A DNA stretch of 64,000 bases from a bacterium. Lineage in GTDB: Bacteria > Patescibacteriota > Dojkabacteria > SC72. A program made the position numbers and the translations under genes. This document shows positions 1,149 through 25,628 of the stretch, one piece after another. The stretch's first letter is position 1. The number at the start of each line of letters is the position of its first letter. A model generated the notes under the pieces. That model ran no database searches. It was not told where the DNA came from and was given only the letters and a program-made list of their open reading frames with translations. The DNA is taken from NCBI GenBank assembly GCA_021107795.1, contig JAIOSB010000027.1, forward strand, positions 290 through 64,289, written 5' to 3'.

Positions 1149-1446
1149 GAATATTAAAATAAATAATTTATATATATAATATGTTTATTAACATACTTTA
1201 AGATTCTCAAACTGAGAACCTGCGCTGAATGTTATCAAAAAGTTGGTCTTTTTGCAAGAGGTTTCCTTATTTTACCAAGAAAAGATTCTCTCTAGAAACC
1301 CTCCAAGCATGGCATGGTCTGTCCTATAATATAGTTTTTGCAAACAAGAGACCTAATTATCACCATACCTAAGGTGTTATATCTCCTTTCTGGTGTGCAC
1401 GGACTTGTAAATATGTGGAATTAAGAAACCCTGTCGTAAAGCCTAT

Positions 1447-2088: not shown

Positions 2089-2112
2089 AGGATTAATATA
2101 TATTGTAGAGTT

Positions 2113-4209: not shown

Positions 4210-4282
4210 AAAAATATAACTAAATTATAAGTAAATCACTTTTCATAAACAGAAAATAGTGTACGATACGCATTATATCAAA

Positions 4283-5728: not shown

Positions 5729-5806
5729 ACTATTTCTAGCATAATTTAGAGCTAGATAATTGTCAAATTTAACTTACAAAGTAATCATGATATACTCGTA
5801 CACATT

Positions 5807-6730
5807 ATGAAAACTTCAAAGTTAGTAATCCTAACTTCTACAATCTGTCTTTCCCTGCTACTTCCAATTATTTTAATAGGTGTTAATCCTAAATATACCT
5901 ATGCGCATGATACAAAAGATGTTGTTGATATTCCTACTGTTTTGTTTGATTTGAATACTCAAGAGGTAAATCATGTGTTTGATTTGAGTCTAGTCACTGT
6001 AGTTATCAATGGAAGGCCTACACAGGTATTGACAAAGAGAACAGATGTTTTTGATTTGTTGAGGGATCTTGGGGTAGTGGTAGATAATAGTAAGAGGATT
6101 GTGAGTATTTCTCAAGAGGTGCAATCAGGGAGTGTAATTAGGGTAATAACTGTGGGGACAGTTGTAGAGGAACTAAATATTGACATACCTTTTGAAACAG
6201 AAAGAATTAATACAAAGGATATTCCATATGGTGATACTTTGGTCTCACAAAAGGGTGTACTTGGTATACGTACACAACAGATAGAGAAGGTTTATGAAGA
6301 TGGGAAGTTGGTATCAGAGGTTATTCTCTCTGAGGTTATTACTAGAAAGGCTAAGGGAGAAATCATTAAGGTCGGAGTATTAAGTTATGGTATTGCGGAT
6401 TTAGAGAAGACTTATGGGTACAATTGTACACATTGGAGGGGAGTTGTTAATAGTGGGAACTATACAGAAAGGGAGAAGGAGTGGTTAAACTTTGTAATGT
6501 ATTGTGAGTCTGGTTGTAATGCAGAGAGTGATAAAAACTCCGTATACAAAGGTCTTTACCAATGGAACCCAAGATATTGGAATATATTCTATCCTAAGGA
6601 TAATATTTATGATGGTTATGCTCAAATTGAAAACACTATAATAAAAATTAGAAAGGGTGCAAAGCTTTACTCATACTGGCCTGATTGTCATAGAAAGTAT
6701 GTAGCTAAGTATGGGGAGTATGATAGATAG
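5807..6730 (+). CDS. RpfB-like secreted protein (DUF348 - G5 - Rpf-type lysozyme-like transglycosylase domain)
   Basis: Signal/TM N-terminus. The DUF348-like segment is VINGRPTQVLTKRTDVFDLLRDLGV. The G5-like segment is YGDTLVSQKGVLGIRTQQIEKVYEDGKLVSEV. The C-terminal VMYCESGCNAESDKNSVYKGLYQWNPRYW...YWPDC matches the Rpf motif CE(S/A)GGN...YYGGLQF.QGTW...W..C. Confidence 0.6.
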   Translation: MKTSKLVILTSTICLSLLLPIILIGVNPKYTYAHDTKDVVDIPTVLFDLNTQEVNHVFDLSLVTVVINGRPTQVLTKRTDVFDLLRDLGVVVDNSKRIVSISQEVQSGSVIRVITVGTVVEELNIDIPFETERINTKDIPYGDTLVSQKGVLGIRTQQIEKVYEDGKLVSEVILSEVITRKAKGEIIKVGVLSYGIADLEKTYGYNCTHWRGVVNSGNYTEREKEWLNFVMYCESGCNAESDKNSVYKGLYQWNPRYWNIFYPKDNIYDGYAQIENTIIKIRKGAKLYSYWPDCHRKYVAKYGEYDR

Positions 6731-8770: not shown

Positions 8771-9940
8771 TTATATTTCTTTGGCATATTTACCATATAC
8801 CCAACCCTCTTTATCTTGCCCAAAGAGTATTTGATACCAACCTTCCTCTTCTTTTACTACAATATATACCTCCCCATCGTTCGCAACATCTATTTTCTCG
8901 CAGCTATACCACCTACATTCCCTTATATTCACGAACCCAAACTCTGGAGAGACCATTTTTACTAATGTATTATCACCTTTGGTTACAGTAAACTCAACCA
9001 CAAATTCAGAGTCTGAGAAGACTTCCTTCTTGAATTTGTAAATCTCGAATGTTTCTACATTTTCTCCGGGTAATACCTTAGGATCTAACTTAAATGTCAT
9101 CTCTATACTTTCTCCTGGTAGTACATATCTGTCAGAAGAAATATGTGTTGGTTTACTAAAACTGTCCCACTCCCCATTAAGAGCATATATACTTTCTTTA
9201 GAATCTTTCACTGATATATATATTGGGTATTTATCAGAAAGCCATACAAAGTCATTTCCATTCTTTATAGTTACTTTAACTTGCAGTGTATTCCCTATCT
9301 CTACAGCCTCTTCATATTCTACACTCTCAATCTCAGCTACATACTCCAAGTGTTCTCTCTCACTAACCTTCCATTCTTCTAGGCTATCACCAATTGATGA
9401 CTTAAACAGGTTGTTGGATTCCACTAGCTCAAGTTTTGAGAGAGTGGCTTCTGATTCTACGATATTGAAAGAATGGCTGTCATATTGAGTAATTCCATAT
9501 TTGTGAGATAGGTCATTCGCAAGTTCTAGAATGGAGGATTTTGCTTTACTACTTACTTGTGCATTATTCGATAGATATGCTACTACAATATATTTTGCAT
9601 CTGTAAGTTTTAAAGTATCTACATTTTGTGTACTGAATATATCTCCATTTTCATCAATTGCGTAGTGGAAAGGTATATTTCCTAGTTTCAGTTTTGTAAT
9701 TGAGTAGTAATATGTTACATCAAGGTAATCTTCTGTACTTAGGTTTAAGGTGTCGTAACTTCCCTCAACTTGCGTAAAGAGGATTTTAGTTGGTTGTTGG
9801 TATTGATATTCTACACCAGCGACTAGAGAAGTATCAAAATCGGAGTATGATTCTTCATATCCTAATATTGGAGTAGTAAATATTGCAAGGAAAAGGATTG
9901 TTAGTAAGATATTTTTAATTTTCATATCACATTGTACCAA
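8771..9940 (-). CDS. Secreted protein with C-terminal SH3b-like domain; possible cell-wall binding. An amidase_2-like N-region is uncertain.
   Basis: Signal peptide MKIKNILLTILFLAIFTTPILG, so the true start may be Met6. The C-terminus FVNIRECRWYSCEKIDV..GEVYIVVKEEEGWYQILFGQDKEGWVYGKY fits the bacterial SH3 pattern. The FHYAIDENGDIF...VVAYLSNN segment only weakly resembles amidase_2. Confidence 0.4.
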   Translation of the reverse strand: MVQCDMKIKNILLTILFLAIFTTPILGYEESYSDFDTSLVAGVEYQYQQPTKILFTQVEGSYDTLNLSTEDYLDVTYYYSITKLKLGNIPFHYAIDENGDIFSTQNVDTLKLTDAKYIVVAYLSNNAQVSSKAKSSILELANDLSHKYGITQYDSHSFNIVESEATLSKLELVESNNLFKSSIGDSLEEWKVSEREHLEYVAEIESVEYEEAVEIGNTLQVKVTIKNGNDFVWLSDKYPIYISVKDSKESIYALNGEWDSFSKPTHISSDRYVLPGESIEMTFKLDPKVLPGENVETFEIYKFKKEVFSDSEFVVEFTVTKGDNTLVKMVSPEFGFVNIRECRWYSCEKIDVANDGEVYIVVKEEEGWYQILFGQDKEGWVYGKYAKEI

Positions 9941-10882
9941 TTATTCTACACTTTTGACATATTCAGGATCAATTGCATTCATGAATCCTACAAAAGGTAC
10001 ACTAAAGAGTTCTTTTTCATATTCAACATCACATACTCCTGAGATTTCGTAGGAGTAGTATAGGTAGTTTTGATTACAATTGACAAAGTAAAGGACTGGT
10101 TCAACCGTATTGATAGAACATTTTTCATATTTTAATTCCACATCCATTGTCTCATATGAAAACTCGTCAACTTCTATCATTCCAGTTGCATCAATGGTTA
10201 TACTTTTAGGATATTGAGGAGAGGAGAGATATAATTCTAAAACATTGGTTTCCGCTATCATGGGGACTATATATTCCGATTTCTCAATTTGTGCTAGTAA
10301 TACTCTCGCAGTACTTAAATATCCGTTTGTTAAATAGAAATAGTCAGAGCTACCCGAGCCTACTTTCACCTCTTTTTCATCGATAATTCTATTAACCCTA
10401 TACATCCTAAAATTTTCTCCTTCGTCTATGATAGGGGTAGTATATTTAATTGAAGTGTCTAAGTAAGTCGATATGAATTCTTCTATGGTGCCAAATCTTA
10501 TCGCTTCAGGATATTTCGTAAGATTTATCATAAGGACTGTAGTGTCAATATCATATCTTAATACCTCCGCATTATCTTTCTCCCATTTTACAAAATTCAT
10601 ATCAGAGGTCTTTTGCAAACTACTATCTATTTCAAATGCAAATTGGTCTAGATATTCTGGGATTGTGTTAGATTTACAAATATAGAGGGGGGAATCTCCT
10701 GATTCAAGTTCCACATCTATTCTAAGATTGTATTCCTTGTAATCACTGAGGTAGGGATTTGCATCTACTAGCTCACTTTCTAATACGTTTGGCTGGAGTA
10801 AAGAGTAAAGAAGGAATATTCCTGCAAGAAGCATTGTTACTACACCTACCACTATTAAGATTTTTAATGTTTTTTTATTCAT
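9941..10882 (-). CDS. Hypothetical membrane-anchored extracellular protein
   Basis: N-terminal TM (LKILIVVGVVTMLLAGIFLLYSLL); no recognisable domain; stop/start abuts neighbouring genes. Confidence 0.45.
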   Translation of the reverse strand: MNKKTLKILIVVGVVTMLLAGIFLLYSLLQPNVLESELVDANPYLSDYKEYNLRIDVELESGDSPLYICKSNTIPEYLDQFAFEIDSSLQKTSDMNFVKWEKDNAEVLRYDIDTTVLMINLTKYPEAIRFGTIEEFISTYLDTSIKYTTPIIDEGENFRMYRVNRIIDEKEVKVGSGSSDYFYLTNGYLSTARVLLAQIEKSEYIVPMIAETNVLELYLSSPQYPKSITIDATGMIEVDEFSYETMDVELKYEKCSINTVEPVLYFVNCNQNYLYYSYEISGVCDVEYEKELFSVPFVGFMNAIDPEYVKSVE

Positions 10883-10897
10883 AATTTTTATTAATTA

Positions 10898-13807
10898 TTA
10901 AGGACGACAAGGTGGACATTTTGATTCTGATTGAACTCCATTTACACAACCCATATCCACTAAGAAAGCGATAGGGTCAATATATTGACCGTTATGTGTT
11001 ATTGTAAGGTGTACATGAGCTCCTGTCCAGCAATAGAAAACCCCATTCTTATTAGGCCTGGTTGTCCCCAAAGGATCATCAGCAACTATCTCAGCTGCAT
11101 ATTGGTAGATATATGCGACTGGCTCACCAGCTTTGTAGTTACGACCATTTCCTGGAGGTATTAGTTTGGTATGCATGAGATTAAACACATTTCCCTGACC
11201 ATCACTGAACTCTATATTCCACCCAGTAAAACCACCGTCAGTACATCTCCATGCAGCCATGCTTGATAGTTTTGCTGTACAGGTAGAGGTGTCACAATAT
11301 TGTGGAGCGAAGAAAAACTTCATTCCTGCTAAGTCTACTGGGTATAGATTTGTAATATTCTTGTGAGAACACTTTGTATTACTAAATCCCTGAGTACAAC
11401 GATATTTGACATCACCAAATGGACAGCTAGAATTGGTTGGTGCAGGGATATTGATAGGAGGAGGAACAAAGTTACCACTAGAATACAGATAGCCAGAGCT
11501 AAATCCTCCATATCCTCCAAAACCTTTATTTTCGTATATGGTACCTGGTATTTCTCTAGAATATGAATCTACTGAGGCCCTATTGCTATACTCACTTGAA
11601 GCTCCAATTAACAATATTAGTCCAAATACCCCGACAAAAGCATAAACAATTACCTTTATCGACAACTTCGTAACTCCTTCCATAACCCAAGCTACTACCA
11701 CTGTCACGGCTGTACCCAAAGGACCTGCAATTGCAGTACCTGCAAGACCAAATGCTGCGACAATACCTTGAGATATAGCACTTGATAAGGCAGCTCCTCC
11801 TGTTGCCTTCCATGATGTCAATAAAGCCATAGCAGCTTTGTCTTTTGTAAAGAATTTAAGCTTAGAGAGAACAGAGAATACACCCTTTCTTATACCCGTT
11901 TGTACTTTCCCCAAGGTTTTTTCTTGAAATAGACTCAACATCCTTGCAGGTGTGCTAAATATAGCTGTAACTTTAGACCATTGTTCAAGTGCATTTGATA
12001 TTTTCTCAGCTTTAAAAAATTTTTTAGCAAAAGCACTGTTTTCATCCCCTAAACCTTTTAGAACATAGCCCAATATATTTCTGTATTTAGGTTCTTTGGC
12101 AAGCAATTGGATTTGTTCCGTAGAATTAAGTTTTTTGTATTTTTTATAAAATTTCCAGAATTTAGGATCTTGCAATTCTTTGAATACTCCAGACTTAACA
12201 CTCCACATTTTCTTGATTTCTATTTTTTTATTATCTGCCACCCATGCAAACCCTTCTCCTGTAAACATAGATTTTACCCAAGTTGCTGGGTTCATATAGT
12301 AAAATCGAACCATACCATCGTTGTATGCATCTCTTAAATTTCGCTTATATGAAATCTCTGCTGATTTTGATTTCACAAATTCTACTTTATTCCACTTCCC
12401 CTTGCCAATTAATATTGTACCCGCATTATCTACTGGGCAGCCATAATATCCTTTAATAGGGTTGTAGAAATCCCCATTGAGAATAGCTTCAATTCCTCCT
12501 GGTCCAAAAGTCTGTTTCACCCCATAATAAAGACCCTCAGCTGCTCCAATTCCACTCCACAATTGAACACTATTCAAAGATCTTCTCGTCGATCTTAATT
12601 GTTTAATATTCTTTTGAGCTACAGATATCTCAGCTCTCTTCTGTGATTTTGACAATTTGCCATAATCTATAAGATTACTACCTGTACCAAATGTCTTCCC
12701 ACTTCTAATAGCTTTTAATCGGTCTCTTAACTCTTCCTCGTTAGATCGGATATTGCTCTTTGCTCTCTTCAATTTAAAAAGTATTCCCTCATCTTTACTT
12801 CCATCAAGACTCTCTGCTCCCTTCATAGCCCTAGCATCGAGAGTGTCATACTTTTTCCATAACTCTAAGATATTATTCGAACTTTCTAGCTTATTATATT
12901 CCACCAATTCTTTTGCTGTTAGTTGAGACTTCGTCCTGTTACCTAACAAATCGTTTTGCCTTTCTTCAAACTCCAGACCTAAAAGGCTCCTAAATGTTTC
13001 AGCACTAGAAATTGTGTCGGTAATCTTATCTATATTATCTTGAGTGTCTTCCCACCGTTTACTATCCGTTTTCTTGTTCAAATTCTTCAAAGAGGCTTCT
13101 AATGCATTAATACCTTCCATACCATTAAGAGAATTAATCTGATTGGTTAACTTCTCCTTCAGCTCCTTTCCTTTCCTTGTATTTTCATCCACCTTGTTCT
13201 TTCTTGCAATTAATTTTCTAACGTCAGTCCTACTCACATATCCATCTTTTCTTAATTCTTCAGAGGCTCGTACAATCCATTGCCTATCTCTAGGACTTCC
13301 CGAATCTTGGGCTGCCTGTCCTACTGCTCTCTCAAGGGTATTTTTAAGATCCCCATACCCCTCGAATAGCCCCATCTTTTTGGCATATGTACTCCCTGCT
13401 AAATATCTCATAGCCTCACCAGCCCATCTGATATTCTCCATTTTAGATATGGTTTTGTTTGTCTCAAAGAGTTTGTCTATGAATTCATCAGGCTTCTCGA
13501 AGAAATCGGGTAACCCACTTGCTGTCAGCTTGACTACAGGTATACGACTAGTCTGTACTCCCACTTTGATAGTCGGATCAACCAGTCCTTGCATAGCTCC
13601 TAGGAATTGATCTCCCACAAACATCCCTGGCATAGCCAATGCATCTACCAAGGTTTGTACATACTCAGAACTTGCTTGACTATCTGCTGTTGGTGGAGGT
13701 CTTACTGGTTTCCTTTGCTCTGGAGGTAATTCAGATTGTTCCAGAACAAAACCTAGGATATCTGATACAGATGATATTGTTTTATCCTTACCCTTATATC
13801 CAGCCAT
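10898..13807 (-). CDS. Large bitopic protein: ~690-aa cytoplasmic coiled-coil-rich N-domain, 2 TM helices, extracellular C-terminal M23 (LytM-type) peptidase-like domain
   Basis: No signal peptide. The TM pair is ...IVAAFGLAGTAIAGPLGTAVTVVVAWV... / ...VIVYAFVGVFGLILLIGA... The C-terminus has the M23 pattern VFNLMHTKLIPPGNGRNYKAGEPVAYI...GTTRPNKNG...CWTGAHVHLTITHNGQYIDP (HxH with flanking Gly-rich loops). Confidence 0.55.
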   Translation of the reverse strand: MAGYKGKDKTISSVSDILGFVLEQSELPPEQRKPVRPPPTADSQASSEYVQTLVDALAMPGMFVGDQFLGAMQGLVDPTIKVGVQTSRIPVVKLTASGLPDFFEKPDEFIDKLFETNKTISKMENIRWAGEAMRYLAGSTYAKKMGLFEGYGDLKNTLERAVGQAAQDSGSPRDRQWIVRASEELRKDGYVSRTDVRKLIARKNKVDENTRKGKELKEKLTNQINSLNGMEGINALEASLKNLNKKTDSKRWEDTQDNIDKITDTISSAETFRSLLGLEFEERQNDLLGNRTKSQLTAKELVEYNKLESSNNILELWKKYDTLDARAMKGAESLDGSKDEGILFKLKRAKSNIRSNEEELRDRLKAIRSGKTFGTGSNLIDYGKLSKSQKRAEISVAQKNIKQLRSTRRSLNSVQLWSGIGAAEGLYYGVKQTFGPGGIEAILNGDFYNPIKGYYGCPVDNAGTILIGKGKWNKVEFVKSKSAEISYKRNLRDAYNDGMVRFYYMNPATWVKSMFTGEGFAWVADNKKIEIKKMWSVKSGVFKELQDPKFWKFYKKYKKLNSTEQIQLLAKEPKYRNILGYVLKGLGDENSAFAKKFFKAEKISNALEQWSKVTAIFSTPARMLSLFQEKTLGKVQTGIRKGVFSVLSKLKFFTKDKAAMALLTSWKATGGAALSSAISQGIVAAFGLAGTAIAGPLGTAVTVVVAWVMEGVTKLSIKVIVYAFVGVFGLILLIGASSEYSNRASVDSYSREIPGTIYENKGFGGYGGFSSGYLYSSGNFVPPPINIPAPTNSSCPFGDVKYRCTQGFSNTKCSHKNITNLYPVDLAGMKFFFAPQYCDTSTCTAKLSSMAAWRCTDGGFTGWNIEFSDGQGNVFNLMHTKLIPPGNGRNYKAGEPVAYIYQYAAEIVADDPLGTTRPNKNGVFYCWTGAHVHLTITHNGQYIDPIAFLVDMGCVNGVQSESKCPPCRP

Positions 13808-13817
13808 ATATTTTTAT

Positions 13818-15266
13818 TTACTTTATTAATTTCCCTAACAATGGAATTCCGCCCAAAGCCTGTTTTGCAGCTTGTGCTGCATCCCCTGCATCTTTTGAGG
13901 TCGTAGGTGGTAGTAAAACTTTAGCGTATACATCTGCTTTAGAAGCTATAAAGATGACGAAGATTTGTAATACAAAAATTAATAATCCACCAAGCAAGTC
14001 TTGACTCTGATCAATTTGCGCTGTTGTTTGAGGAAGTGTGAGCTTATCCGGTCCTGGTAGCGATAAACCACCATCGCTTACAGCATAAAGAACTCCTGGG
14101 ATATTAAGAATTGCAAATGTAATCGGATATACTAACACATTTCTCATAATACTTTTCATCCAATTGATAAAACTTGCACTTTGACCTGGAATAGCTGACA
14201 TAGCAATTTGGAAAGGACCTGTTATTACAGCAATTAGAATACCAATATATGCCTTTATTAAAGTTAGAAAAACCTTAAAAACACCGACTGTCACTACAGC
14301 TAAAATAGCCAATACCAAGATTAATCCTACAAGTCCAACGACGACACCTGTAAGAGGGGCTGCAATAAATCCAACGACAACACCTATAGCTGCAGTTCCA
14401 CCAACAAGACCCAGTAACCCACCCTTACCTCCAAAGTCTGCAAATTGAGTCATTTCTTCAAAAAGGCCTTCCGGTGTAAACGCCCTAAATATACTACCCA
14501 AACTTTCCAGTGTAATAGGGTCACTATATTCACTACTACTAAAAATATCTACTAGAAGGACCATCATGAGCCCTCCAATATCTATTATCACTCCCGCTAT
14601 TGCAAAACTAAAGGTAACCCCTATTAACGCAAGAATAATGTTTGGTAGAGTATTCCCAAGAGTCACTAATGTCTGTCCTCCTAGTTTACTTCTAAACATG
14701 ATCATGAATCCAACAACTATCATGATTAATATGAAGAATACATAAGTAATATTCCTAACCTGTGACCATAATCCACTGATACCAGTATTAACCAACTCAT
14801 CATATCCTGAGTCAAATCCACTAGTTGTAATACTTGCATACACAGAACTATCTGCCTGATAACCAGGTACCCACTCTTCTGCCAAATGCGCATATACATT
14901 AACAAGAGGTTGTGATTCGTATAAAGCATATACTCCATCGGATGTCATACCATATATACCTCTTTTCATGTCAGGCGATATCGTATCTGAGTCCAACATT
15001 GCTTGATAGTCTGAAGATATTTCTGGTGCTAGATAAATAATTGCATTAACCACTGCGGTATTGGCACTAACAGCCTGTGACCTAGCAGAGTTATACTCAT
15101 CTCCCTCTGCCCCCTGCCCCACATTCACAGCTTCTACAGTAGATCCATATGATCCACTAAGGTCTAAACCTGTGTATTCTTGAGCATACGCATTAGTAGA
15201 TAAGAAGAAGAAAGCTATAACAAGTACTGACCAAAACAAATCTTTATTAAATCTATTTATTTTCAT
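13818..15266 (-). CDS. Polytopic membrane protein, VirB6/TrbL-like topology (signal peptide, ~150-aa extracytoplasmic segment, ~7-8 Gly-rich TM helices)
   Basis: Signal peptide LFWSVLVIAFFFLSTNAYAQ, then hydrophilic Ser/Tyr-rich segment, then consecutive hydrophobic Gly-rich helices (GLLGLVGGTAAIGVVVGFIAAPLTGVVVGLVGLILVLAILAVV...). Confidence 0.4.
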   Translation of the reverse strand: MKINRFNKDLFWSVLVIAFFFLSTNAYAQEYTGLDLSGSYGSTVEAVNVGQGAEGDEYNSARSQAVSANTAVVNAIIYLAPEISSDYQAMLDSDTISPDMKRGIYGMTSDGVYALYESQPLVNVYAHLAEEWVPGYQADSSVYASITTSGFDSGYDELVNTGISGLWSQVRNITYVFFILIMIVVGFMIMFRSKLGGQTLVTLGNTLPNIILALIGVTFSFAIAGVIIDIGGLMMVLLVDIFSSSEYSDPITLESLGSIFRAFTPEGLFEEMTQFADFGGKGGLLGLVGGTAAIGVVVGFIAAPLTGVVVGLVGLILVLAILAVVTVGVFKVFLTLIKAYIGILIAVITGPFQIAMSAIPGQSASFINWMKSIMRNVLVYPITFAILNIPGVLYAVSDGGLSLPGPDKLTLPQTTAQIDQSQDLLGGLLIFVLQIFVIFIASKADVYAKVLLPPTTSKDAGDAAQAAKQALGGIPLLGKLIK

Positions 15267-15290: not shown

Positions 15291-16631
15291 TTACATCTTA
15301 TATACAGGATCTGTTCTATTCTCACTCTCCCATACATGAAAATTCATATAATCCATTCTATCAGGAAATACCTCCTGAGGCATATTATCATGTGACTGAA
15401 ATTCTAATTCTTGAGTAATATAGTCAATATCCCAAGCACAAGAAAGAGCCTTATTACCATATCCTCCAATATTTGCATAACAAGTTGTTAAGACATAAAT
15501 CTTCTGTGACTCATCAGCATTTGGAATTGAAAAACTTCCATTTCTTAACTTATTGAACTCCGTTACACACTTTCCATCAATACAATCTGCTTTACTACCC
15601 CAAGGAGACTCCATAATTACAACAATACTTGCAGTATTTATACAATTCTCATCTGCACCACTTATGCTAGAACACCTATCTGCATCAAAGATATTCATTA
15701 TTTCCTTAAAAAACGATATTACAATTTGCTTAAGACTTGGAGTACAACCTATCATCTCTGTATCTAAATCCATATTGATAAATGTAGTGTTCGTATCACA
15801 ATCATCTATACCATCATCTTCTTGCTCTGGAATATTTTCATAATATCCTGGATAATTCTGTGATTGACCCAATACATATGATCCAGACAAATATTTCTCT
15901 GGTGTCGGGTTAGAATAGTTTCTACAAGCTGCTCCACAATCATTAACTTGATACTTAGAGATAGAGATTTCACTTGTACCTGAGCCTTTGGCATTAGCAG
16001 TACCTTCAATGGAATAATTAATACCAAAAGATTTCGTTTTAGAAGCTTCCCCAGCATCTATAATAGCTTGTGTCTGAGTCTCTCCTGGGTACATATTCCC
16101 TGCAACCACTTCTTTATTAATCATCTCTCCCGCAGGTCTTAGTGTCCAGTGTTCAGTACCATCTTCTTCAGTAAATATTTGCCTAACAGATGAGTCCATA
16201 GTTGGAGATCCATTCAAAAGAGGTGGTACTTCGATACTAGTAAGAGAAATCGAAGCCTTTCTATCTACCATATCCCCTATACTCAGTTCTCTATCTTCTT
16301 TACCCATGTCCGCATCGAAAGAGAAAGTCCTAGCACATACTTTCTCGGAGGAATAGCTGTAGAAAGGAGTTACACATACATCCTGTTCTCCTAAAACCAT
16401 TCCTGGTTTAACCTCTCTAATCGGTTTGAAATTTTCATCTATTTCAAAGAACAAAGCTTGTTCCAATTGCCAGTCCTCTTCATTGGCCTCTACTTTCTCA
16501 CGAAGTACATACTCTTGAGTATCAGCTTGGATATGAGTAACCCTTTGTGTCTTGTTTATAACAAAAACCCCAAACAAAATAAGGAAAGATAAAAGAAGGA
16601 CAGGTTTTCGCGAATACAATTTCTTTGACAT
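15291..16631 (-). CDS. Cys-rich secreted/anchored hypothetical protein
   Basis: N-terminal TM (PVLLLSFLILFGVFVI), many paired cysteines (CGAAC, CDTNTT, CIDGKC), acidic. Confidence 0.45.
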   Translation of the reverse strand: MSKKLYSRKPVLLLSFLILFGVFVINKTQRVTHIQADTQEYVLREKVEANEEDWQLEQALFFEIDENFKPIREVKPGMVLGEQDVCVTPFYSYSSEKVCARTFSFDADMGKEDRELSIGDMVDRKASISLTSIEVPPLLNGSPTMDSSVRQIFTEEDGTEHWTLRPAGEMINKEVVAGNMYPGETQTQAIIDAGEASKTKSFGINYSIEGTANAKGSGTSEISISKYQVNDCGAACRNYSNPTPEKYLSGSYVLGQSQNYPGYYENIPEQEDDGIDDCDTNTTFINMDLDTEMIGCTPSLKQIVISFFKEIMNIFDADRCSSISGADENCINTASIVVIMESPWGSKADCIDGKCVTEFNKLRNGSFSIPNADESQKIYVLTTCYANIGGYGNKALSCAWDIDYITQELEFQSHDNMPQEVFPDRMDYMNFHVWESENRTDPVYKM

Positions 16632-16669
16632 AGTACAATATACATCGAAAAGAAGATGTATTCAATTGA

Positions 16670-18283
16670 TTAATCTATAAGAATGCCATAATCAGAAAGT
16701 AATGGGATTGAACTGTATGCTGAATTACTTGAATCAGAGACAGAGACTTCTACTTCTTCAGAAACAGCTTCTCCAACAGTCATTTCTGTAGCTGAAGGGT
16801 TTGTGAAATATTTAGAACTAAAGTTAACGATATCATCATTACTTTTATCGAAATATCCGCCCTCTGCATCTCTTGCTCCACCAATTGTCAAAATCCAAGA
16901 CCCTTCACTATCTACTAAGGTAGATATCGGGTAGCTTGTACCACTAGAACCAATACCGTCATTGTCCGTAAAGGTTGCAACAACAAGAGCATTTTTATAA
17001 TCCACAACCTCAAGAATACCTACAATGGTCTCAAACTGTGGAGGGCTGGATTGTGTAGCAAAAGTTTTTACTTCACCTTCATATTCATATACATCTTCTC
17101 CCGAGTATATTTCAAAAAAGTATGTTGTCTCTGGTTGTAATTGTGCAATCTCAATACTATGCAAGAAATATTCTCCTTGAGACGCTATACCATCTCTCTC
17201 ATCTCTCCCTTTATTAGACAAATCTGATGTAGTAGTTCCATACATTACATAGCCTTGTTGTGATTCCTTAGAGAACCATATTATCGAACAACTAACATCC
17301 GTAAGATTTGTAATCATTACACTCTCTACTCCATATACCTCCGGTTGAGAAGGCACTACTCCACTATTTGATACCATATCAATCCAAGCTAAATCACTCT
17401 TAAGTTCGTATAGGTTATCGGGAGTTTCATCTTCAATTTTCTCTTCTTCTTCTACCACAGGTACTACATATGAGTCTTTTTCTTCAATTATCATATCAGG
17501 TTTTTCACCTTCTTCTGTAGCTACAAGTTTCGTAGCGTCAGAGATATAGGTATCATATGGACTTCCAAAGATTACAAGCGTTTCCGTTAGTTTCATACTA
17601 GAATCAAAGATTGTCCCATATTGTCCTTCTACCACACCTGCATTCCCAACACTTGACACTCCCAGTATTACTAAGTCTGTTGAGTCTAACAGTGTATACA
17701 TACTCTTATCCTCAATACTTCTTAACGATGAGAGATCCACTAACCAGTTCCCATTGCTAGATGGAACAGTTGCTACTGGGTATGTCGTTTTGTCCTTGGG
17801 GAATATATATATTAGGGCATCGTCATCACTTATATCAGAGAGTTCTCCATGTACGGGTGTAGGGGTTGGAATATCTGCACTAATATTGGCTGTAGTAAAA
17901 CTAAACTCTTCCCCTTCTATATCTGTGTACATATCTTCTCCTGATATGATTTTAAAATCATATTCTGTATTTGGTTCTAAACTTTGAATTTCAACGTAGT
18001 GAGTATTTCTCTTCTCATTTCCCCTCTTATCTATCACTGGATTTTTCTCAGTTCCATTGAGTACAGGGATTACCGACCCTATTACTTCACTTTCAGTAGT
18101 CCATGTTACTGTGATGGAATTGGTAGTAAGGTTTGCAAGTATTGCATCTTTGGGTTGTGTATTTACTCCTGCATTTGTAAACCATCGTGCACCACTGTAT
18201 ATGGCAAAGAGTGTAAGAGGAATACCTAGTACCAGCGTAATTATTGTAGTTAGTTGCTTCTTTTGGTATGGAGTTATGTACAT
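16670..18283 (-). CDS. N-terminally anchored protein with two Fn3-like (purple-acid-phosphatase-N-like) domains
   Basis: TM anchor LTTIITLVLGIPLTLFAIYS. Repeat 1 is NSITVTWTTESEVIGSVIPVLNG...HYVEIQSLEPNTEYDFKIISG. Repeat 2 is CSIIWFSKESQQGYVMYG...LHSIEIAQLQPETTYFFEIYSG. Confidence 0.5.
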   Translation of the reverse strand: MYITPYQKKQLTTIITLVLGIPLTLFAIYSGARWFTNAGVNTQPKDAILANLTTNSITVTWTTESEVIGSVIPVLNGTEKNPVIDKRGNEKRNTHYVEIQSLEPNTEYDFKIISGEDMYTDIEGEEFSFTTANISADIPTPTPVHGELSDISDDDALIYIFPKDKTTYPVATVPSSNGNWLVDLSSLRSIEDKSMYTLLDSTDLVILGVSSVGNAGVVEGQYGTIFDSSMKLTETLVIFGSPYDTYISDATKLVATEEGEKPDMIIEEKDSYVVPVVEEEEKIEDETPDNLYELKSDLAWIDMVSNSGVVPSQPEVYGVESVMITNLTDVSCSIIWFSKESQQGYVMYGTTTSDLSNKGRDERDGIASQGEYFLHSIEIAQLQPETTYFFEIYSGEDVYEYEGEVKTFATQSSPPQFETIVGILEVVDYKNALVVATFTDNDGIGSSGTSYPISTLVDSEGSWILTIGGARDAEGGYFDKSNDDIVNFSSKYFTNPSATEMTVGEAVSEEVEVSVSDSSNSAYSSIPLLSDYGILID

Positions 18284-18390
18284 AGCTCTATATTACATTT
18301 ATTATTTCTATTAGACAATGGGGAGGGATCTTTGACGATGTGGATAATCGAGTTCATCTTTTATTCATAATCAATATGTAGAATATTAGT

Positions 18391-18879
18391 ATGAGTCAAG
18401 AGGATATTACATATGTATTTATAGATGCTCAGAATCTATATCTGGGTATAAGAGATCTAGGCTGGCATATTGATTATAGAAAACTCAATGTTTACCTGAA
18501 GGAAAAGTATCAAGCTCAATGTCTTTATATGTATATTGGATATCTGAAAGGAAATCAAAAGCTCTATACCAAACTTACACAGGCTGGTTTCGATATTATA
18601 TTCAAGGATACAGTGCGATATGGAAGAAACCGGGTTATTAAAGGTAACGTTGATGTAGATCTCACAGTAGATGTAATAAGAAAAGCATCCCTATACAACA
18701 AAGCCATTTTTATAAGTGCGGATGGGGATTTTTGTGCACTTTACAACTACCTTCTCAAAGAAAAAGGGAAAGAAATTTTAATACTAATCCCCAATATTTA
18801 TAAATATTCAAAGTTACTATTAAAATATAAGGGTAGACTAAGATTTATGAATGATTTGAGAGCCAAGATTGGGGAATAA
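18391..18879 (+). CDS. NYN-domain (LabA/DUF88-like PIN-fold) protein
   Basis: FIDAQNLY...GNVDVDLTVDV...FISADGDF acidic triad arrangement typical of NYN/LabA-like nucleases. Confidence 0.6.
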   Translation: MSQEDITYVFIDAQNLYLGIRDLGWHIDYRKLNVYLKEKYQAQCLYMYIGYLKGNQKLYTKLTQAGFDIIFKDTVRYGRNRVIKGNVDVDLTVDVIRKASLYNKAIFISADGDFCALYNYLLKEKGKEILILIPNIYKYSKLLLKYKGRLRFMNDLRAKIGE

Positions 18880-19014
18880 AAAGGGGGAGTGTTGCTTGTA
18901 AGACGAAACTTACAACCTTCCCTCCCTCGTGATAGCTCATTATAATAAATATCTACGATAATTACAACACGAGCAACACTAATTCATATCATGTTCACAA
19001 TCAGAAAAGGCTTT

Positions 19015-19329
19015 TTACTTCTTCATCCCTGAGAGAAACTCTGTAAGCGTAGTTAGTAATCCTGATATTTGTCTAACAGGTTGTATTACTGCTTGGTTTA
19101 CTTCTTCTACAGTCCCTTTTGTAGTACTTACCATTGCTTGAACATCATCAAGTATCACATTCGTCTTAATTAGTGTTTTGTTTGCTTCTTCAATGATCTT
19201 TGTACTACCCTGAACTACTCCTCTGGTATCTTTGGTAACCATACCTAGTTGGTAGAGTATGAATGTAAAGAATGCTACAGGTATCCCCATAAGTATCATC
19301 CAGTATATTGATGGTATTGTGTCGAACAT
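19015..19329 (-). CDS. Small single-TM membrane protein (DUF948-like?)
   Basis: 104 aa, one N-terminal TM (IYWMILMGIPVAFFTFILYQL) followed by a helical coiled-coil-like tail. Confidence 0.35.
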   Translation of the reverse strand: MFDTIPSIYWMILMGIPVAFFTFILYQLGMVTKDTRGVVQGSTKIIEEANKTLIKTNVILDDVQAMVSTTKGTVEEVNQAVIQPVRQISGLLTTLTEFLSGMKK

Positions 19330-19375
19330 ATGTATAGTGTTTTAATTAATCTATACCTTAGAATATCAGATATCC

Positions 19376-22300
19376 CTAGTTATTACCACATTGACCATCT
19401 AATTCACCATCTGGATGCCATATTAATGATTTGCATGTACTGTCTTCTGGTTGAAAGCTAGATATTCTCACAAAGTAGCCATTTGATGTAGTTATTGGAT
19501 AATCAAAACCATATTCTGTTCCCTCAGAGACTTGCAACCCCTCAAACATACCTTTTGATACAGGCCACCATGTTATATTATCTGCAGTTAAGCCTGAGAT
19601 TCTATTCACTGAGTCAATGAGTGTACGTGCTGTAAATGCTTTAGTATACCCACTTACTCCGATTAAGTTCCAACCAGGTATAAAACTTACAGGTACATTC
19701 GTATTAATATCAAATCCAGGAATAGGTATTCTACTATTCCTAGTAGCTACTATCGCATATCCAAAGCCTGGTAGTAGAGGGAAGTCAGAGCCGGCAGGAG
19801 TTCCTGATTCTGTAGACTTACTCATAATCCCTCCCTTCCACGATCCGTTGGAGAAGTATGTTATCTGACTGATTACTTCAAATTGGCTATTAGCTTCTTC
19901 CAATAGTTGTTCTGCAGTGTAGGATTCCCCGACATTCAGTGCAGGATAGAAATCGAATGATACTAGGTTTAAGCCCTCTTTCAGCACTATATCATACGCA
20001 TTAGATACTTGATTGACACTTAGTTCCAGCACACTAGATGATACTAAGTAGTCTCCATTTGCCACATCAAATTTCCCGTCATTGTTTATATCTTTATAAT
20101 ATATATATTTATAGTCAGCATTATAGTATTGCACGACGTTCTCACTATCTGGTCTAATTACTTCATAGTAACCATCTTTAGTCACACTTAAAAACAGCTC
20201 TTCCGTCTCTTGGGCCGACACTTTAGGTGCTGAGAAAGAGGCGATTTCCTGGAGGATATTATCCAAATTTAATGTACTAGTTTCAGAACATTCTCCAAAC
20301 GGTACAATTTTATATCCAGCTACACATCCTTTACCAACTTCTTGTTTTTGTTTTACTCCAAACCCACTATCACAACAGACATACCCTTCTTTAACATACT
20401 CTGTATCGAATGTAGCTGTACCACCTCCTGTTTTTATAACTGTATTAAAACTCTCACCATATATGGTTTCTAAATCAGCTTTCTGACCACAGGCATTAAA
20501 TTGAACCTCTATATCCCCTTTTGAGGTCAGGCAGTAATATTGAAGACCCTCAATTTCCTCCAAAGGTAGTAACCAACGATCGTCAAAAGAATCTTTATTA
20601 AAATCTCCGAGACTTTGCTTTGTTGGAGTCGCATAAGGAGTCTCGACTGATGGCCCAGAATAGTAATAATAATCTCCATCATCATCCAGATATATGTAAT
20701 CTCCATTCCAAGTAGGACTACCAACGTCATTTGCTATCACAAGATCCTCCGTTATAGTCTCTCTTAAAAAGTACGAGGCAGAGACACACTCTTTATTACC
20801 GCACTCATCACAATTGATAATATTTCCTTCATCCTTATTGAAACAGTACATCTCGTTTTCCAAATTAACAGATTTCACTACCTTATCAGCACAATACTCA
20901 TAAAAGTCTACCGTTTCATACTCACATTGACCAATTCCAGTTGGGTAGTAATTAGGGATATATACATAGCTAGATTCCTTTTTTACATTATGACAACACT
21001 CTAAGGCAATCACTTCTCCACTATCATTAGTTACAAGAGGTGCGAAATCTTCTGCAGACAGATTCCCTGATAATGAAGATTCCTCACCCTCCTCATTTGA
21101 GACGCTAGGTTGGCACTGAAACCAGAAGGATTCGCAGGGTGTGCCGTAATCGTCCTGGCTGGGACAGTTTATGAGATCATAGTCTGTAGTATAGTCTGAG
21201 CAGCGGAGTTTTCCCTCCTCCTCTTGATCTACACTTTCCTTCGGTTTAGGAGAAGGTAGTCCAGGATTATTACCCATACACTCGCTTTTCTCTTTATCCC
21301 AATAACAACCTCCATAATAATTCTCATTACAAACAGTTTCTGTAGTATAACCACTACAACCAGTTATCTCAGGACCCTCTACTACAAGTTCTATCTTGTC
21401 CTCAAGAAATCCCATAATCTCAGCACTCCCCTGCAAATCTCCAATAATATCTTCATATTCCGACGAATCTACAACGTCGACATTACCTGATACACTGTTT
21501 TTAACAAGTTCTCCATCTAATAAAGTATAGAGATTCCCTGCAGCATCTACTACTTGATCCTCTCCTATAACCTTCTTTTCTCCATCAACCTCAACCATCT
21601 GCCTACCCCTCTCCATACACCCCGCAGGCTTTGGACAAAGAGCTTGCAATCGGATATTAAATTGGCGAACTCCATTCCATAGACAAGTCTTGTAACAAGG
21701 ACTTGTTGGTGCACAACCACCAGCAAGAATAGGTCCATAAGAGACTGTTTTCCCTTCACTGTCCTCACACCTTGCCTCATCCCATGCAGCATTGACATAA
21801 GGTATAAAGGATTCTAATAAATCCTCTGCATTATTCTCAAAATCTATATCCTCTTCACTATTACCCAAGATACTCTCTACAGGAATATCATCTGTTCCAA
21901 AGGTTATCATATAGCACTGCTTTGGAGTAAAAGACTCATATTGATAACAAACCTCACCATTCATACCATTTATATCATCAAATACAGAACCATTTAAATC
22001 TCTAAAAGCCCCCTTATCAATACTCCACCCACCCTCACTATTAGTAGAAGCTGAAAGTAAATTAGAAATCAAAACATTACTCTCATCTACTACCCCTACA
22101 AAAACCATAGAATCTTTAGAGTCATCCTCATACAACAATCCTCCCGTATCAAGCTTCATACCATAAATCTTCCCATACATTGGATTAGGGACCACCATCT
22201 CGACAACATCCTGTATAACAGTTGTAACAGAAAACTCACTGAGAGTATCAAAAGCATATTCATATGAGTTTGTCTTACTACTAGACCATAGGAGTGAACC

Positions 22301-22714
22301 ATTTGATAATACAAAATTGTAAATCTTTCCTTCTTCAAGACCTGAAACAGTAACATGATGAACGTAATATTTATTATTCTTTACCTTGTATTCATTCAAA
22401 CAGTCAATACTATCTACACCACTCTCAAGTGCATCATTATTCAAATCTTCAACACAACTGGCCTGGGCTAAAACAACATCTCTATCATCATATGCAAACC
22501 TAACACCATTACTCCAGTACATTACAAATCCCTGTGTAGGCTGATGTGTTAGCCAGGATATAGTTGCAGAAGATGCAGTAATATTGGTAACCCTGACATC
22601 ATATGCTTGGAGCTTATTGCCCTGTACAATATAGTAAACTAGATAAGAGAAGGATATTAGCACAATAACTGTTAAGAGTCCCAATCCAAACATCTTGCTT
22701 CTTTTCATATTCAA
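19376..22714 (-). CDS. Giant (1112 aa) Cys-rich surface protein with N-terminal anchor and Fn3-like (PAP-N-like) domain
   Basis: TM anchor FGLGLLTVIVLISFSYLVYYIV, then the Fn3-like signature VTNITASSATISWLTHQPTQGFVMYWSNG...HHVTVSGLEEGKIYNFVLSNG. After that come >40 cysteines in clustered pairs (CDECGNKEC, ECCHN, VCCDSG). Confidence 0.5.
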   Translation of the reverse strand: MNMKRSKMFGLGLLTVIVLISFSYLVYYIVQGNKLQAYDVRVTNITASSATISWLTHQPTQGFVMYWSNGVRFAYDDRDVVLAQASCVEDLNNDALESGVDSIDCLNEYKVKNNKYYVHHVTVSGLEEGKIYNFVLSNGSLLWSSSKTNSYEYAFDTLSEFSVTTVIQDVVEMVVPNPMYGKIYGMKLDTGGLLYEDDSKDSMVFVGVVDESNVLISNLLSASTNSEGGWSIDKGAFRDLNGSVFDDINGMNGEVCYQYESFTPKQCYMITFGTDDIPVESILGNSEEDIDFENNAEDLLESFIPYVNAAWDEARCEDSEGKTVSYGPILAGGCAPTSPCYKTCLWNGVRQFNIRLQALCPKPAGCMERGRQMVEVDGEKKVIGEDQVVDAAGNLYTLLDGELVKNSVSGNVDVVDSSEYEDIIGDLQGSAEIMGFLEDKIELVVEGPEITGCSGYTTETVCNENYYGGCYWDKEKSECMGNNPGLPSPKPKESVDQEEEGKLRCSDYTTDYDLINCPSQDDYGTPCESFWFQCQPSVSNEEGEESSLSGNLSAEDFAPLVTNDSGEVIALECCHNVKKESSYVYIPNYYPTGIGQCEYETVDFYEYCADKVVKSVNLENEMYCFNKDEGNIINCDECGNKECVSASYFLRETITEDLVIANDVGSPTWNGDYIYLDDDGDYYYYSGPSVETPYATPTKQSLGDFNKDSFDDRWLLPLEEIEGLQYYCLTSKGDIEVQFNACGQKADLETIYGESFNTVIKTGGGTATFDTEYVKEGYVCCDSGFGVKQKQEVGKGCVAGYKIVPFGECSETSTLNLDNILQEIASFSAPKVSAQETEELFLSVTKDGYYEVIRPDSENVVQYYNADYKYIYYKDINNDGKFDVANGDYLVSSSVLELSVNQVSNAYDIVLKEGLNLVSFDFYPALNVGESYTAEQLLEEANSQFEVISQITYFSNGSWKGGIMSKSTESGTPAGSDFPLLPGFGYAIVATRNSRIPIPGFDINTNVPVSFIPGWNLIGVSGYTKAFTARTLIDSVNRISGLTADNITWWPVSKGMFEGLQVSEGTEYGFDYPITTSNGYFVRISSFQPEDSTCKSLIWHPDGELDGQCGNN

Positions 22715-24621: not shown

Positions 24622-24951
24622 TTATATCTTTTTAGACAGTTTTTCTATTCTTTTAAAATACCAGTCCGTATTTATTCCCCATTTATTTGCCTCTTCACAC
24701 ATTCTAATCGCATCTTTATAACGTTGCTCATATTCAAGTAACATAATTGAGCGTTGAAAAGCAGGAACCGTTTTAACCATAGAATATCCATTCCGCCTGT
24801 CACTTATTGCCATTTGCCAGAATAGCTCTTGACCCTTCATACAAAGCCCCCAGAATTCATCTCTCAACTTTTGAGAGAAACCTTCGTGTTTCAAATTCCT
24901 CCATTTATTTTCTATTTCATCCAAATTGTCAAAATATGTTTGGTGTTCCAT
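24622..24951 (-). CDS. Hypothetical 109-aa protein, downstream partner of the DUF4145 gene
   Basis: No recognisable motif; Trp-rich, soluble. Confidence 0.35.
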   Translation of the reverse strand: MEHQTYFDNLDEIENKWRNLKHEGFSQKLRDEFWGLCMKGQELFWQMAISDRRNGYSMVKTVPAFQRSIMLLEYEQRYKDAIRMCEEANKWGINTDWYFKRIEKLSKKI

Positions 24952-24971
24952 AGTTCCATAATTCCCTTTAT

Positions 24972-25628
24972 CTATTTGTTTGGTGGTTTATTAGCAGATT
25001 TTAATTTCTCATCTAATGCCTTCTTTTTCAATTTTGTTAGAGTAGGTTGGACATAATAAAAATCAAATAATTGTTCAAGAACATCTAATATCCACTCAGT
25101 TTCTCCCTTTTCTACATCTATAATTTGACCACTATTAGTGGATTTTATAGGATGTGATGCGAAATTCCCAATATTTCTGACAGCATCAATAGCTTCACTG
25201 AGATGGCTTGGCAGTGTCTCCATAGCTTTCTCAATTTCTTGACTAAGATTATTTTTTGATATACCTTGTTCATGCAACATACTCTGCAAACATCTTCTCG
25301 CAAGTGCTGCTGATGCTTTTGAACTTAAAGGTTCTATTAACGAAGCCTCATTGAAATCCTGACTTATATCTGTTGGAACTTCTTTTGGAGCAGATGGTCT
25401 CATTGCACCTAAGGGACAAATCATTTGTTCACCAAATAATATTATAATTTCTTGACAAGCAGTACACCTGCAAGTTCGAAGCAATTTGGTTTTATCTTCC
25501 ACCCCATTTATTAACTCTCTATTAGGAAAATCGTAATTATGTGGGTACTTATAATATTGAACACCTTCAAAACGATTTGAATTTTTACAATATGGACATA
25601 TTCCTGTCTGATTTCTTGCAACTACCAT
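24972..25628 (-). CDS. Zn-ribbon + DUF4145 (HEPN-like) domain protein
   Basis: The N-terminus CPYCKNSN...CRCTACQ is a CxxC...CxxC ribbon. The C-terminus LSEAIDAVRNIGNFASHP...EWILDVLEQLFDFYYV fits the DUF4145 pattern (A..IR..GN.AAH ... ll..lf.fly) and is R-x-H HEPN-like. Confidence 0.5.
   Translation of the reverse strand: MVVARNQTGICPYCKNSNRFEGVQYYKYPHNYDFPNRELINGVEDKTKLLRTCRCTACQEIIILFGEQMICPLGAMRPSAPKEVPTDISQDFNEASLIEPLSSKASAALARRCLQSMLHEQGISKNNLSQEIEKAMETLPSHLSEAIDAVRNIGNFASHPIKSTNSGQIIDVEKGETEWILDVLEQLFDFYYVQPTLTKLKKKALDEKLKSANKPPNK

Follow-up and report, generated by a model that had tools for sequence, protein, structure and literature searches.

Two cysteine-rich proteins of a Dojkabacteria chromosome as candidate disulfide-stabilised ecto-components of a split, type IV secretion-linked envelope apparatus

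In F-like conjugative type IV secretion systems (T4SSs), the surface component TraN, which is found with TraU, TraH and the disulfide isomerase TrbB, is cysteine-rich and disulfide-bonded; its scaffold is conserved, and a variable region determines the partner specificity of mating-pair stabilisation. Extracellular disulfides are also routine in the monoderm Actinobacteria, where pilins and other exported proteins, each with few disulfides and with a bias towards even numbers of cysteines, are bonded by an MdbA/DsbA-VKOR pathway. Here we describe two cysteine-rich proteins of 446 and 1112 amino acids (aa) that are encoded in a 64-kb stretch of a Dojkabacteria chromosome (contig JAIOSB010000027.1 of assembly GCA_021107795.1; genome size about 0.6–0.7 Mb), referred to at its full length as the window. 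We propose, with a probability of roughly 0.55, that they are disulfide-stabilised ecto-components, possibly adhesins, of a split envelope apparatus linked to a T4SS.

On the map of the enterococcal plasmid pCF10, which carries a T4SS of the MPF-FATA type, the channel genes and the gene of the hydrolase PrgK come after those of three surface adhesins, PrgA, PrgB and PrgC. The VirB4 proteins of Patescibacteria belong to the same T4SS lineage as the pCF10-type system, and the T4SSs of this phylum, for which VirB3–TrsD–VirB4 has been described as the core, resemble monoderm conjugation systems; VirB6, VirB8 and VirB1 are often undetectable, and no adhesin was found (PMC12102498). Epibiotic growth of a saccharibacterium requires a T4SS and several adhesins, one of which is a fibronectin type III (FnIII) protein (PMC10633639).

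With pCF10, the locus in the window shares the monoderm envelope and the order of surface proteins, a polytopic membrane protein (482 aa) and a large, membrane-bound putative wall hydrolase (969 aa). In contrast to PrgB and PrgC, which are annotated as LPXTG-bearing sortase substrates, the surface proteins of the window are rich in cysteines and lack LPXTG; moreover, homology was detected neither between the 482-aa protein and PrgH nor between the 969-aa protein and PrgK, and VirB3 and VirB4 are encoded outside the Dojkabacteria cluster. The likeness to TraN consists in the cysteine richness expected of a T4SS surface component and in the combination of a conserved scaffold with a variable region. 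However, TraN resides in the outer membrane of diderms, whereas the proteins described here are predicted to be N-terminally anchored in a single membrane and include FnIII domains; they gave no Pfam match to TraN, and no dedicated disulfide isomerase was seen nearby. The even-number bias and the oxidative folding of monoderm surface proteins recall Actinobacteria, but up to 17 disulfides are expected here (about 43 in the family), an oxidase pair has been identified there, and Patescibacteria are generally without a respiratory chain. T4SS clusters of other classes of Patescibacteria have the 482-aa family and Cys-rich exported proteins in common with the locus, but in Dojkabacteria the cluster is separated from the ATPase core. 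Likened by description only, the essential adhesin SEML1_0890 of Southlakia epibionticum is likewise a patescibacterial FnIII surface protein implicated in host contact, but nothing is reported there on cysteines or on linkage to a T4SS membrane protein (PMC10633639).

The sequence-only reading of this region had placed two disulfide-rich extracellular proteins here. Both open reading frames (ORFs) exist on the minus strand (Table 1); the larger one begins at a TTG codon, and the later ATG codons used in public gene calls yield proteins of 1110 or 1105 aa. They contain 12 (2.7%) and 34 (3.1%) cysteines, respectively, as compared with 3.7 and 9.2 expected from the mean of 0.83% in the other 43 ORFs of the window. 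The excess over the window background is three- to fourfold (binomial P = 4e-4 for the 446-aa and 2e-10 for the 1112-aa protein). The two are the most cysteine-rich exported proteins of the window. Consecutive cysteines form sequence-local pairs, with 4–18 residues (446-aa protein) or 1–18 residues (1112-aa protein) inside pairs and 20–133 or 3–285 residues, respectively, between them. Cysteine richness and local pairing, as first noticed, are thus borne out, whereas the CxxC, CC and CxxxC motifs to which the pairing had been ascribed are rare: the 446-aa protein has a single CxxxC and lacks both CC and CxxC, and in the 1112-aa protein CC occurs twice and CxxC and CxxxC once each.

A hydropathy scan indicated a K/R-rich N-terminus followed by a hydrophobic segment in both proteins. 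These segments resemble uncleaved anchors, and every cysteine lies downstream of them, on the predicted extracytoplasmic side; these features predict export and membrane anchoring for the two proteins. Although the window contains a sortase gene, the Cys-rich proteins can be ruled out as sortase substrates, since an LPXTG-like motif with a hydrophobic tail was not found in the 446-, 537- or 1112-aa proteins.

The cysteines of the 446-aa family are fixed. In an alignment of 25 sequences sharing 43–65% identity, 12 out of 12 are invariant, forming six local pairs (86/99, 232/236, 278/296, 320/330, 350/355 and 384/398), and extra cysteines are confined to the leader region or occur as two together in a single insertion (P0016). 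In more distant Dojkabacteria, position-equivalent ORFs keep this ladder of pairs, mostly with 12, 14 or 16 cysteines (11 in two loci), and it survives even where the profile E-value drops to 1e-6 or to nothing. Only 28 relatives of the 446-aa protein, all of about 450 aa and all from the same lineage, were found among 5.8 billion clustered proteins; it has no match in Pfam, NCBIfam, PHROGs or PDB, and comparison by hhalign indicated that its family is unrelated to that of the 1112-aa protein. It is best explained as a core subunit that evolves slowly and whose disulfide scaffold does not change.

For the 1112-aa family, parity and paired gain and loss of cysteines were analysed in its best 152 members, which contain 2–87 cysteines each (median 34). 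The count is even in 112 of the 152 (P = 4e-9); among the 72 sequences that look complete, it is even in 60 (74–83% overall). By region, even counts were found in 73/73 N-domains, 71/73 C-domains and 64/73 middles. Three variable cysteine pairs in the conserved domains co-occur with phi values of 1.00, 1.00 and 0.98, members with both, a single one or neither of the two cysteines numbering 55/0/69, 20/0/104 and 31/1/64. The first of these is the pair Cys1094/Cys1109, which follows the C-terminal domain and is never single; 87/105 and 256/267 are further candidate pairs of the window protein. Even counts were also observed in all nine exported proteins of the window that have at least two mature cysteines, with the topology assigned by us. 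Such an even-count signature was reportedly used by Dutton and colleagues to recognise organisms that oxidatively fold their exported proteins. Invariance, parity and paired gain and loss strongly favour the extensive extracellular disulfide bonding that had been suggested for these proteins; we infer from these sequence statistics that disulfides form in both of them, which we consider very likely. That such bonding would be unusual for bacteria lacking a periplasm was too strong a claim in view of the Actinobacteria. In addition, the core genes of one group of Saccharibacteria include VKOR in single copy (PMC9040727), and the phylum is therefore not devoid of such enzymes. A search of the literature on disulfide formation or Cys-rich proteins in the candidate phyla radiation (CPR) retrieved nothing specific.

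A word-based search for relatives of the 1112-aa protein yielded few sequences; an exhaustive profile search returned 2503 representative proteins at E ≤ 1e-3, 523 of them at E ≤ 1e-30; the family comprises more than 500 clusters at 50% identity. Its members consist of an N-terminal anchor, a conserved base, a hypervariable middle and a conserved C-terminal domain. The FnIII domain of the window protein scores below the cut-offs of PF16656 (28.8 bits, cut-off 30) and PF00041 (18.6 bits, cut-off 25); PF16656 is matched by all 43 family members scanned (best E 4e-11) and, with 62 bits, by the neighbouring 537-aa protein, in which the module of FnIII and second beta domain occurs twice. The domain in the base forms a seven-strand beta-sandwich. 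The N-terminal anchor and the Fn3-like domain noted previously are confirmed.

The middle of the protein is very variable in length and sequence across the family, contains 6.3% cysteine family-wide, and has no Pfam match. A four-cysteine module, CC-x(8-26)-C-x(6-24)-C, is enriched about fourfold in the family middles (133 observed vs 32 in shuffles). Individual proteins carry as many as nine copies in tandem, and the window protein has two, at residues 573–608 and 780–809; the module was also noted in P0031, P0040 and P0070, and may represent an undescribed mini-domain. The conserved tip domain is preceded by a DxNxDG motif resembling the calcium loop of EF-hand or dockerin domains (DINNDGKFD, residues 875–883, positions 20068–20094, minus strand), and a similar motif occurs in 60 of the 152 members. 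No Pfam match to the C-terminal domain was obtained even at E = 10, and a homologue search with this domain alone added only two further fragments. The arrangement of conserved base, hypervariable Cys-rich middle and conserved tip fits the cell-surface spike or adhesin that had been proposed. A target of diversification of the diversity-generating retroelement type was rejected, as the window encodes no reverse transcriptase and it is the C-terminus of the protein that is conserved. The gene is present in zero to two copies at a fixed site between rsmE and the gene of a 104-aa protein; in a distant relative (L031, positions 193–6320), it is tandemly duplicated.

The main context of the two proteins, missed in the sequence-only reading, is a conserved, T4SS-linked gene cluster to which this site belongs; on the minus strand it reads 1112, 104, 537, 446, 482, 969, 313 and 389 (genes named by the length of their products in aa), followed by uvrD; in the window, a gene of an NYN-domain protein on the opposite strand is inserted between 104 and 537. 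Among the loci compared, the NYN gene was detected in contigs of this organism itself and, beyond these, in just one distant relative (L004/L005). From 537 to 389, all genes are read from one strand with gaps of 0–38 bp. The order is the same in 29 metagenome loci and six species genomes, with identities of the 482-aa protein down to 36%, and the variable element is the 1112 gene. Pfam, NCBIfam and PHROGs gave no match to the 482-, 969- and 313-aa proteins, nor to the middle or tip of the 1112-aa protein; sequence and profile searches of PDB were negative for the 482- and 969-aa proteins and for the alignments A1, A2, A3 and A7, and tblastn of the 482-aa protein against plasmid records gave no match.

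The window also contains a VirB3–TrsD–VirB4 core as found in MPF-FATA-like T4SSs of Patescibacteria, which stands alone between recF and a nucleotidyltransferase gene on one side and an AAA ATPase gene on the other. No membrane-channel, wall-hydrolase or pilin-array gene lies beside it, nor was a pilin array recognised elsewhere in the window, where the 482-aa cluster gene is the sole member of its family. The PrgI-like protein is long (273 aa), with a weakly SdrD_B-like Ig domain at its C-terminus.

Scanning metagenome contigs with the 482-aa family identified 80 loci, namely, 29 of the Dojkabacteria type and 51 more distant ones (hidden Markov model E-values of 1e-23 to 1e-56). In 15 of the 51, the 482 homologue is located 2.2–9.1 kb from PrgI–TrsD–VirB4, and of the 17 distant, non-Dojkabacteria loci whose downstream sequence reaches 9 kb or more, 11 show the linkage (examples of loci with the family are L046, L049, L057, L060, L061, L072, L076 and L084). 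Besides, these loci carry arrays of small proteins with two transmembrane (TM) segments, resembling VirB2-type pilins, one Cys-rich fusion protein among them matching the T4SS_pilin profile, and, after VirB4, a hydrolase with an SLT domain and 8–14 cysteines. The proximity of 482 homologues to PrgI–TrsD–VirB4 in other lineages indicates that the 482 family is T4SS-linked, and for this reason the Dojkabacteria cluster is most likely the envelope half of a T4SS. Membership of the VirB6 family was rejected, as no similarity to VirB6/TrwI or PrgH was detectable; the 482-aa protein is a T4SS-linked polytopic membrane protein that is analogous to VirB6 in position and possibly in function, and its family may be the undetected channel component of the patescibacterial T4SS.

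Cys-rich exported proteins occur in other T4SS clusters of Patescibacteria as well, among them a protein of 745 aa with 20 cysteines, one of 518 aa with 10 cysteines and a C-terminal T4SS_pilin match, and SLT hydrolases. Cysteine richness may be a general trait of the extracellular T4SS parts in these bacteria.

Several observations weigh against a T4SS-linked, disulfide-stabilised apparatus. In the window, the core is separated from the cluster by about 35 kb, the cluster is not within about 20 genes of virB4, and VirB4 was found within 10 kb of the cluster in none of the 29 Dojkabacteria-type loci. The 482-aa family shows no Pfam match to VirB6, TrbL or PrgH, reaches an hhalign probability below 1% against TrwI of R388 and PrgH of pCF10, and is not similar to any PDB chain; also by hhalign, the 969-aa family resembles neither PrgK nor the SLT proteins encoded after VirB4 in the distant loci. 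Homologues of the 446-, 537- and 1112-aa families, as well as of the 969-, 313- and 389-aa families, were not found in the T4SS clusters of other lineages, so that for the first three the tie to the T4SS rests on the neighbourhood of one gene. In the close relatives L011 (7091–8256) and L016 (5717–6876), the 1112 gene is missing from the syntenic site and hence is dispensable for the cluster. As to the disulfides, no structure shows paired cysteines: the AlphaFold2 models of the 446-aa protein (from the 25-sequence alignment) and of the 1112-aa protein are of low confidence, with pLDDT values of 45.4 and 42.7 (about 25 in the Cys-rich middle), and too poor to show pairing. A Pfam search and a CxxC scan of the window revealed no gene of a DsbA, DsbB, VKOR or thioredoxin-like protein, nor was a Dsb-type gene present in the 10 kb beyond its left edge, which contain only genes of EF-Tu and ribosomal proteins.

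The Cys-rich proteins might alternatively be free-standing adhesins or proteins of an envelope lattice with no tie to a T4SS, their shared neighbourhood being due to stable gene order. The flanking housekeeping genes (coding for PNPase, RsmB, RsmE, UvrD, a G5 protein, a TPR protein and EF-G) are indeed equally syntenic throughout the class, and both the absence of the 446-, 537- and 1112-aa families from the T4SS clusters of other lineages and the loss or duplication of the 1112 gene at its site agree with this explanation. However, stable gene order does not account well for the tight packing of 537–389 on one strand, for its maintenance in all 29 + 6 loci despite the divergence of the 482-aa protein, or for a T4SS core in the window that has no channel or hydrolase partner; we therefore regard free-standing proteins as unlikely, though worth keeping in mind.

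The 969-aa protein and its downstream neighbours could instead point to an apparatus for wall remodelling or cell division, with the Cys-rich proteins as its structural or regulatory ectodomains. In the 969-aa protein, H815, D825, H879, H931 and H933 (an HxH motif) are invariant in six orthologues, following an M23/LasA-like pattern, and the C-terminal ectodomain (positions 10898–11500, minus strand) contains 10 conserved cysteines. With provisional comparison sequences, hhalign gave probabilities of 88.8% for LasA and 60% for lysostaphin; neither a Pfam M23 match, even at E = 10, nor a PDB match was obtained. On these grounds, we consider the protein a putative divergent, membrane-tethered peptidoglycan endopeptidase. 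The bacterial SH3 domain (SH3_3) of the 389-aa protein and the G5 protein encoded next to uvrD are in line with a function in wall metabolism. Nevertheless, wall hydrolases are normal components of T4SSs in monoderms (PMC12102498), a hypervariable middle and a copy number of zero to two would be unexpected of a partner of a housekeeping wall enzyme, and the linkage of the 482-aa family in other lineages is to VirB4 rather than to division genes, which makes this explanation improbable.

It is very improbable that the cysteines bind zinc or iron-sulfur centres in knuckle-like modules, as might be imagined for an anaerobe devoid of a thiol oxidase. The recurrent CC-x-C-x-C module could in principle hold a metal, and the lack of Dsb-type genes in the window as well as the general lack of a respiratory chain in Patescibacteria (PMC10633639) would be compatible with such a role; however, cysteines are gained and lost in twos rather than in fours, total counts of 26, 30, 34 and 38 are common in the family, there are hardly any CxxC pairs of the kind common at Zn or Fe-S sites, the proteins are predicted to be extracellular, and another class of the Patescibacteria has VKOR among its core genes (PMC9040727). 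Cytoplasmic metal-cluster proteins, in particular, are ruled out because export signals are present and CxxC patterns are lacking. It is just as improbable that the proteins are toxins or effectors released from the cell, or receptor-binding proteins derived from phages: cysteine-rich secreted proteins are often toxins, and "toxin-like" folds had been suggested without a supporting result, but nothing points to a toxin; against these readings stand the anchor-like N-termini, the fixed chromosomal position among housekeeping genes, and the lack of matches in Pfam, NCBIfam and PHROGs and, by tblastn of the 1112-aa protein, in 50,697 phage records.

If the two proteins are ecto-components of a split, T4SS-linked apparatus, they would be exported by the Sec pathway and retained in the membrane by their N-terminal anchors, with their bulk outside the cell. 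Intramolecular disulfides, six in the 446-aa and seventeen in the 1112-aa protein, would then form between cysteines that are close in sequence and would lock thin, protease-resistant extracellular modules. Together with the 482-aa protein and the 969-aa hydrolase, the slowly evolving 446- and 537-aa proteins may form an assembly that spans the envelope, and may be its constant part. The 1112-aa protein would act as a modular spike, built of the anchor, a base of FnIII and beta-sandwich domains, a fast-evolving middle of small disulfide-knotted modules, and a conserved tip; present in zero to two copies, it may reach outward to contact another cell. Assembly with the 482- and 969-aa proteins and binding of a host cell are the functions that we infer for the Cys-rich proteins.

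The cluster as a whole is most likely the envelope and extracellular half of a patescibacterial T4SS-like machine whose ATPase core has been split off in Dojkabacteria; the Cys-rich proteins would then be its parts for cell contact, either as adhesins or in mating-pair stabilisation. It has the appearance of a T4SS cluster after relocation of the VirB3–TrsD–VirB4 cassette, which would have left behind the exported proteins, the membrane protein, the wall hydrolase and the small anchored proteins. The neighbourhood of the 482 gene in other lineages is what suggests the T4SS link, and the architecture of the proteins together with the analogies to TraN and the Southlakia adhesin is what suggests a role in adhesion. 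A more far-reaching, tentative idea, which we think somewhat doubtful, is that the Cys-rich proteins are the host-touching end of a repurposed, two-piece T4SS, in which the middle of the 1112-aa protein sets host range in the manner of TraN and disulfides arise by an undescribed oxidation route in a cell that has no respiratory chain.

The description of the organism as monoderm-type fits a chromosome of Dojkabacteria (WS6, CPR). The window, with a G+C content of 31–39%, encodes the housekeeping proteins EF-G, IF-2, NusA, PNPase, AlaRS, LepA, RecF and SHMT, together with a sortase, a LytR-CpsA-Psr protein and several surface proteins with N-terminal anchors; outer-membrane genes were not seen among its ORFs, tRNA and Rfam scans gave no match, and the homologues found for the target genes are labelled Candidatus Dojkabacteria or Patescibacteria group bacterium. 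A DUF11-type surface protein of 573 aa (positions 42142–43863, plus strand) has 10 cysteines and, ahead of a hydrophobic segment at its C-terminus, a VPQTG motif; the sortase, whose gene lies 9 kb upstream, probably accepts it as a substrate. Two genes separate the PNPase gene from rsmB (24622–25628, minus strand), one for a DUF4145 protein in which two CxxC motifs of the zinc-ribbon type occur and one for a protein of 109 aa; the closest relative (L011, positions 5210–6034) has two different small genes at this site, which is a small variable island beside the cluster.

Table 1. Positions of the Cys-rich proteins, their domains, the genes of the conserved cluster, the T4SS core and further features. 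Positions refer to the window, except where a metagenome locus (L) precedes them.
Feature	Position	Strand	Basis or remark
446-aa Cys-rich exported protein	15291-16631	-	12 invariant Cys in six local pairs
1112-aa Cys-rich surface protein	19376-22714	-	34 Cys; large Dojkabacteria family
1112-aa protein, N-terminal membrane anchor, residues ~9-31, after K/R-rich n-region	22622-22690	-	hydropathy scan; helix 2-34 in AlphaFold model
1112-aa protein, conserved base, residues ~38-285: FnIII (purple-acid-phosphatase-N type) and second beta domain	21860-22603	-	
1112-aa protein, hypervariable Cys-rich middle, residues ~316-809, 28 Cys	20288-21769	-	family alignment
1112-aa protein, conserved C-terminal beta-rich domain, residues ~898-1090; motifs GWNLIG, YEGLQ, YGFDYP, GYFVR	19445-20023	-	invariant columns; pLDDT 60-80
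104-aa single-TM protein	19015-19329	-	weak DUF948 match; 55-86% identity in all syntenic loci
NYN-domain (RNase-like) gene between 104-aa and 537-aa genes	18391-18879	+	
537-aa N-anchored protein: two FnIII + beta-domain modules, acidic linker, 1 non-conserved Cys	16670-18283	-	
482-aa polytopic membrane protein: signal peptide, ~140-aa ectodomain, ~8-9 TM segments, 0 Cys	13818-15266	-	
969-aa protein: ~680-aa N-terminal domain without signal peptide, hydrophobic residues 683-747, C-terminal ectodomain	10898-13807	-	
313-aa N-anchored protein, 4 Cys, kept in cluster	9941-10882	-	
389-aa exported protein (384 aa in public records), C-terminal bacterial SH3 domain; last cluster gene before uvrD	8771-9940	-	
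Sortase gene	32446-33240	+	
PrgI/VirB3-like gene	49911-50732	+	Pfam PF12666
TrsD-like gene	50729-51379	+	NCBIfam TrsD 8e-7
VirB4 ATPase gene	51369-53759	+	PF19044 TraG P-loop, CagE_TrbE_VirB
Cys-rich proteins in other T4SS clusters	L057:7055-9289, L046:4463-6016, L060:4923-7566, L046:17422-20118		

Disulfide-rich surface proteins and T4SS-associated adhesins are already known kinds of protein. What appears to be new are the 446- and 1112-aa families, for which, the FnIII base aside, no relatives were found in Pfam, NCBIfam, PHROGs or PDB, as well as the CC-C-C module, the gene cluster conserved in Dojkabacteria, and the linkage of the 482-aa family to the patescibacterial T4SS; a literature search found no paper describing these families, the module, the cluster or the linkage.

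Much of bacterial diversity belongs to the Patescibacteria, which apparently live attached to other cells, yet beyond type IV pili and a few adhesins of Saccharibacteria, little is known of their contact molecules. In the published survey of their T4SSs, channel or wall-hydrolase components often escaped detection (PMC12102498). The locus offers a widespread polytopic family, that of the 482-aa protein, which travels with VirB3–TrsD–VirB4 and could be the missing channel component. In Dojkabacteria, it further offers an unchanging group of exported partners that includes two of the most disulfide-rich surface proteins to be expected in a monoderm. The parity and pairwise covariation of their cysteines are a clean sign of oxidative folding of exported proteins in these organisms, and raise the question of which oxidase, and which electron acceptor in the absence of quinone-based respiration, would sustain it.

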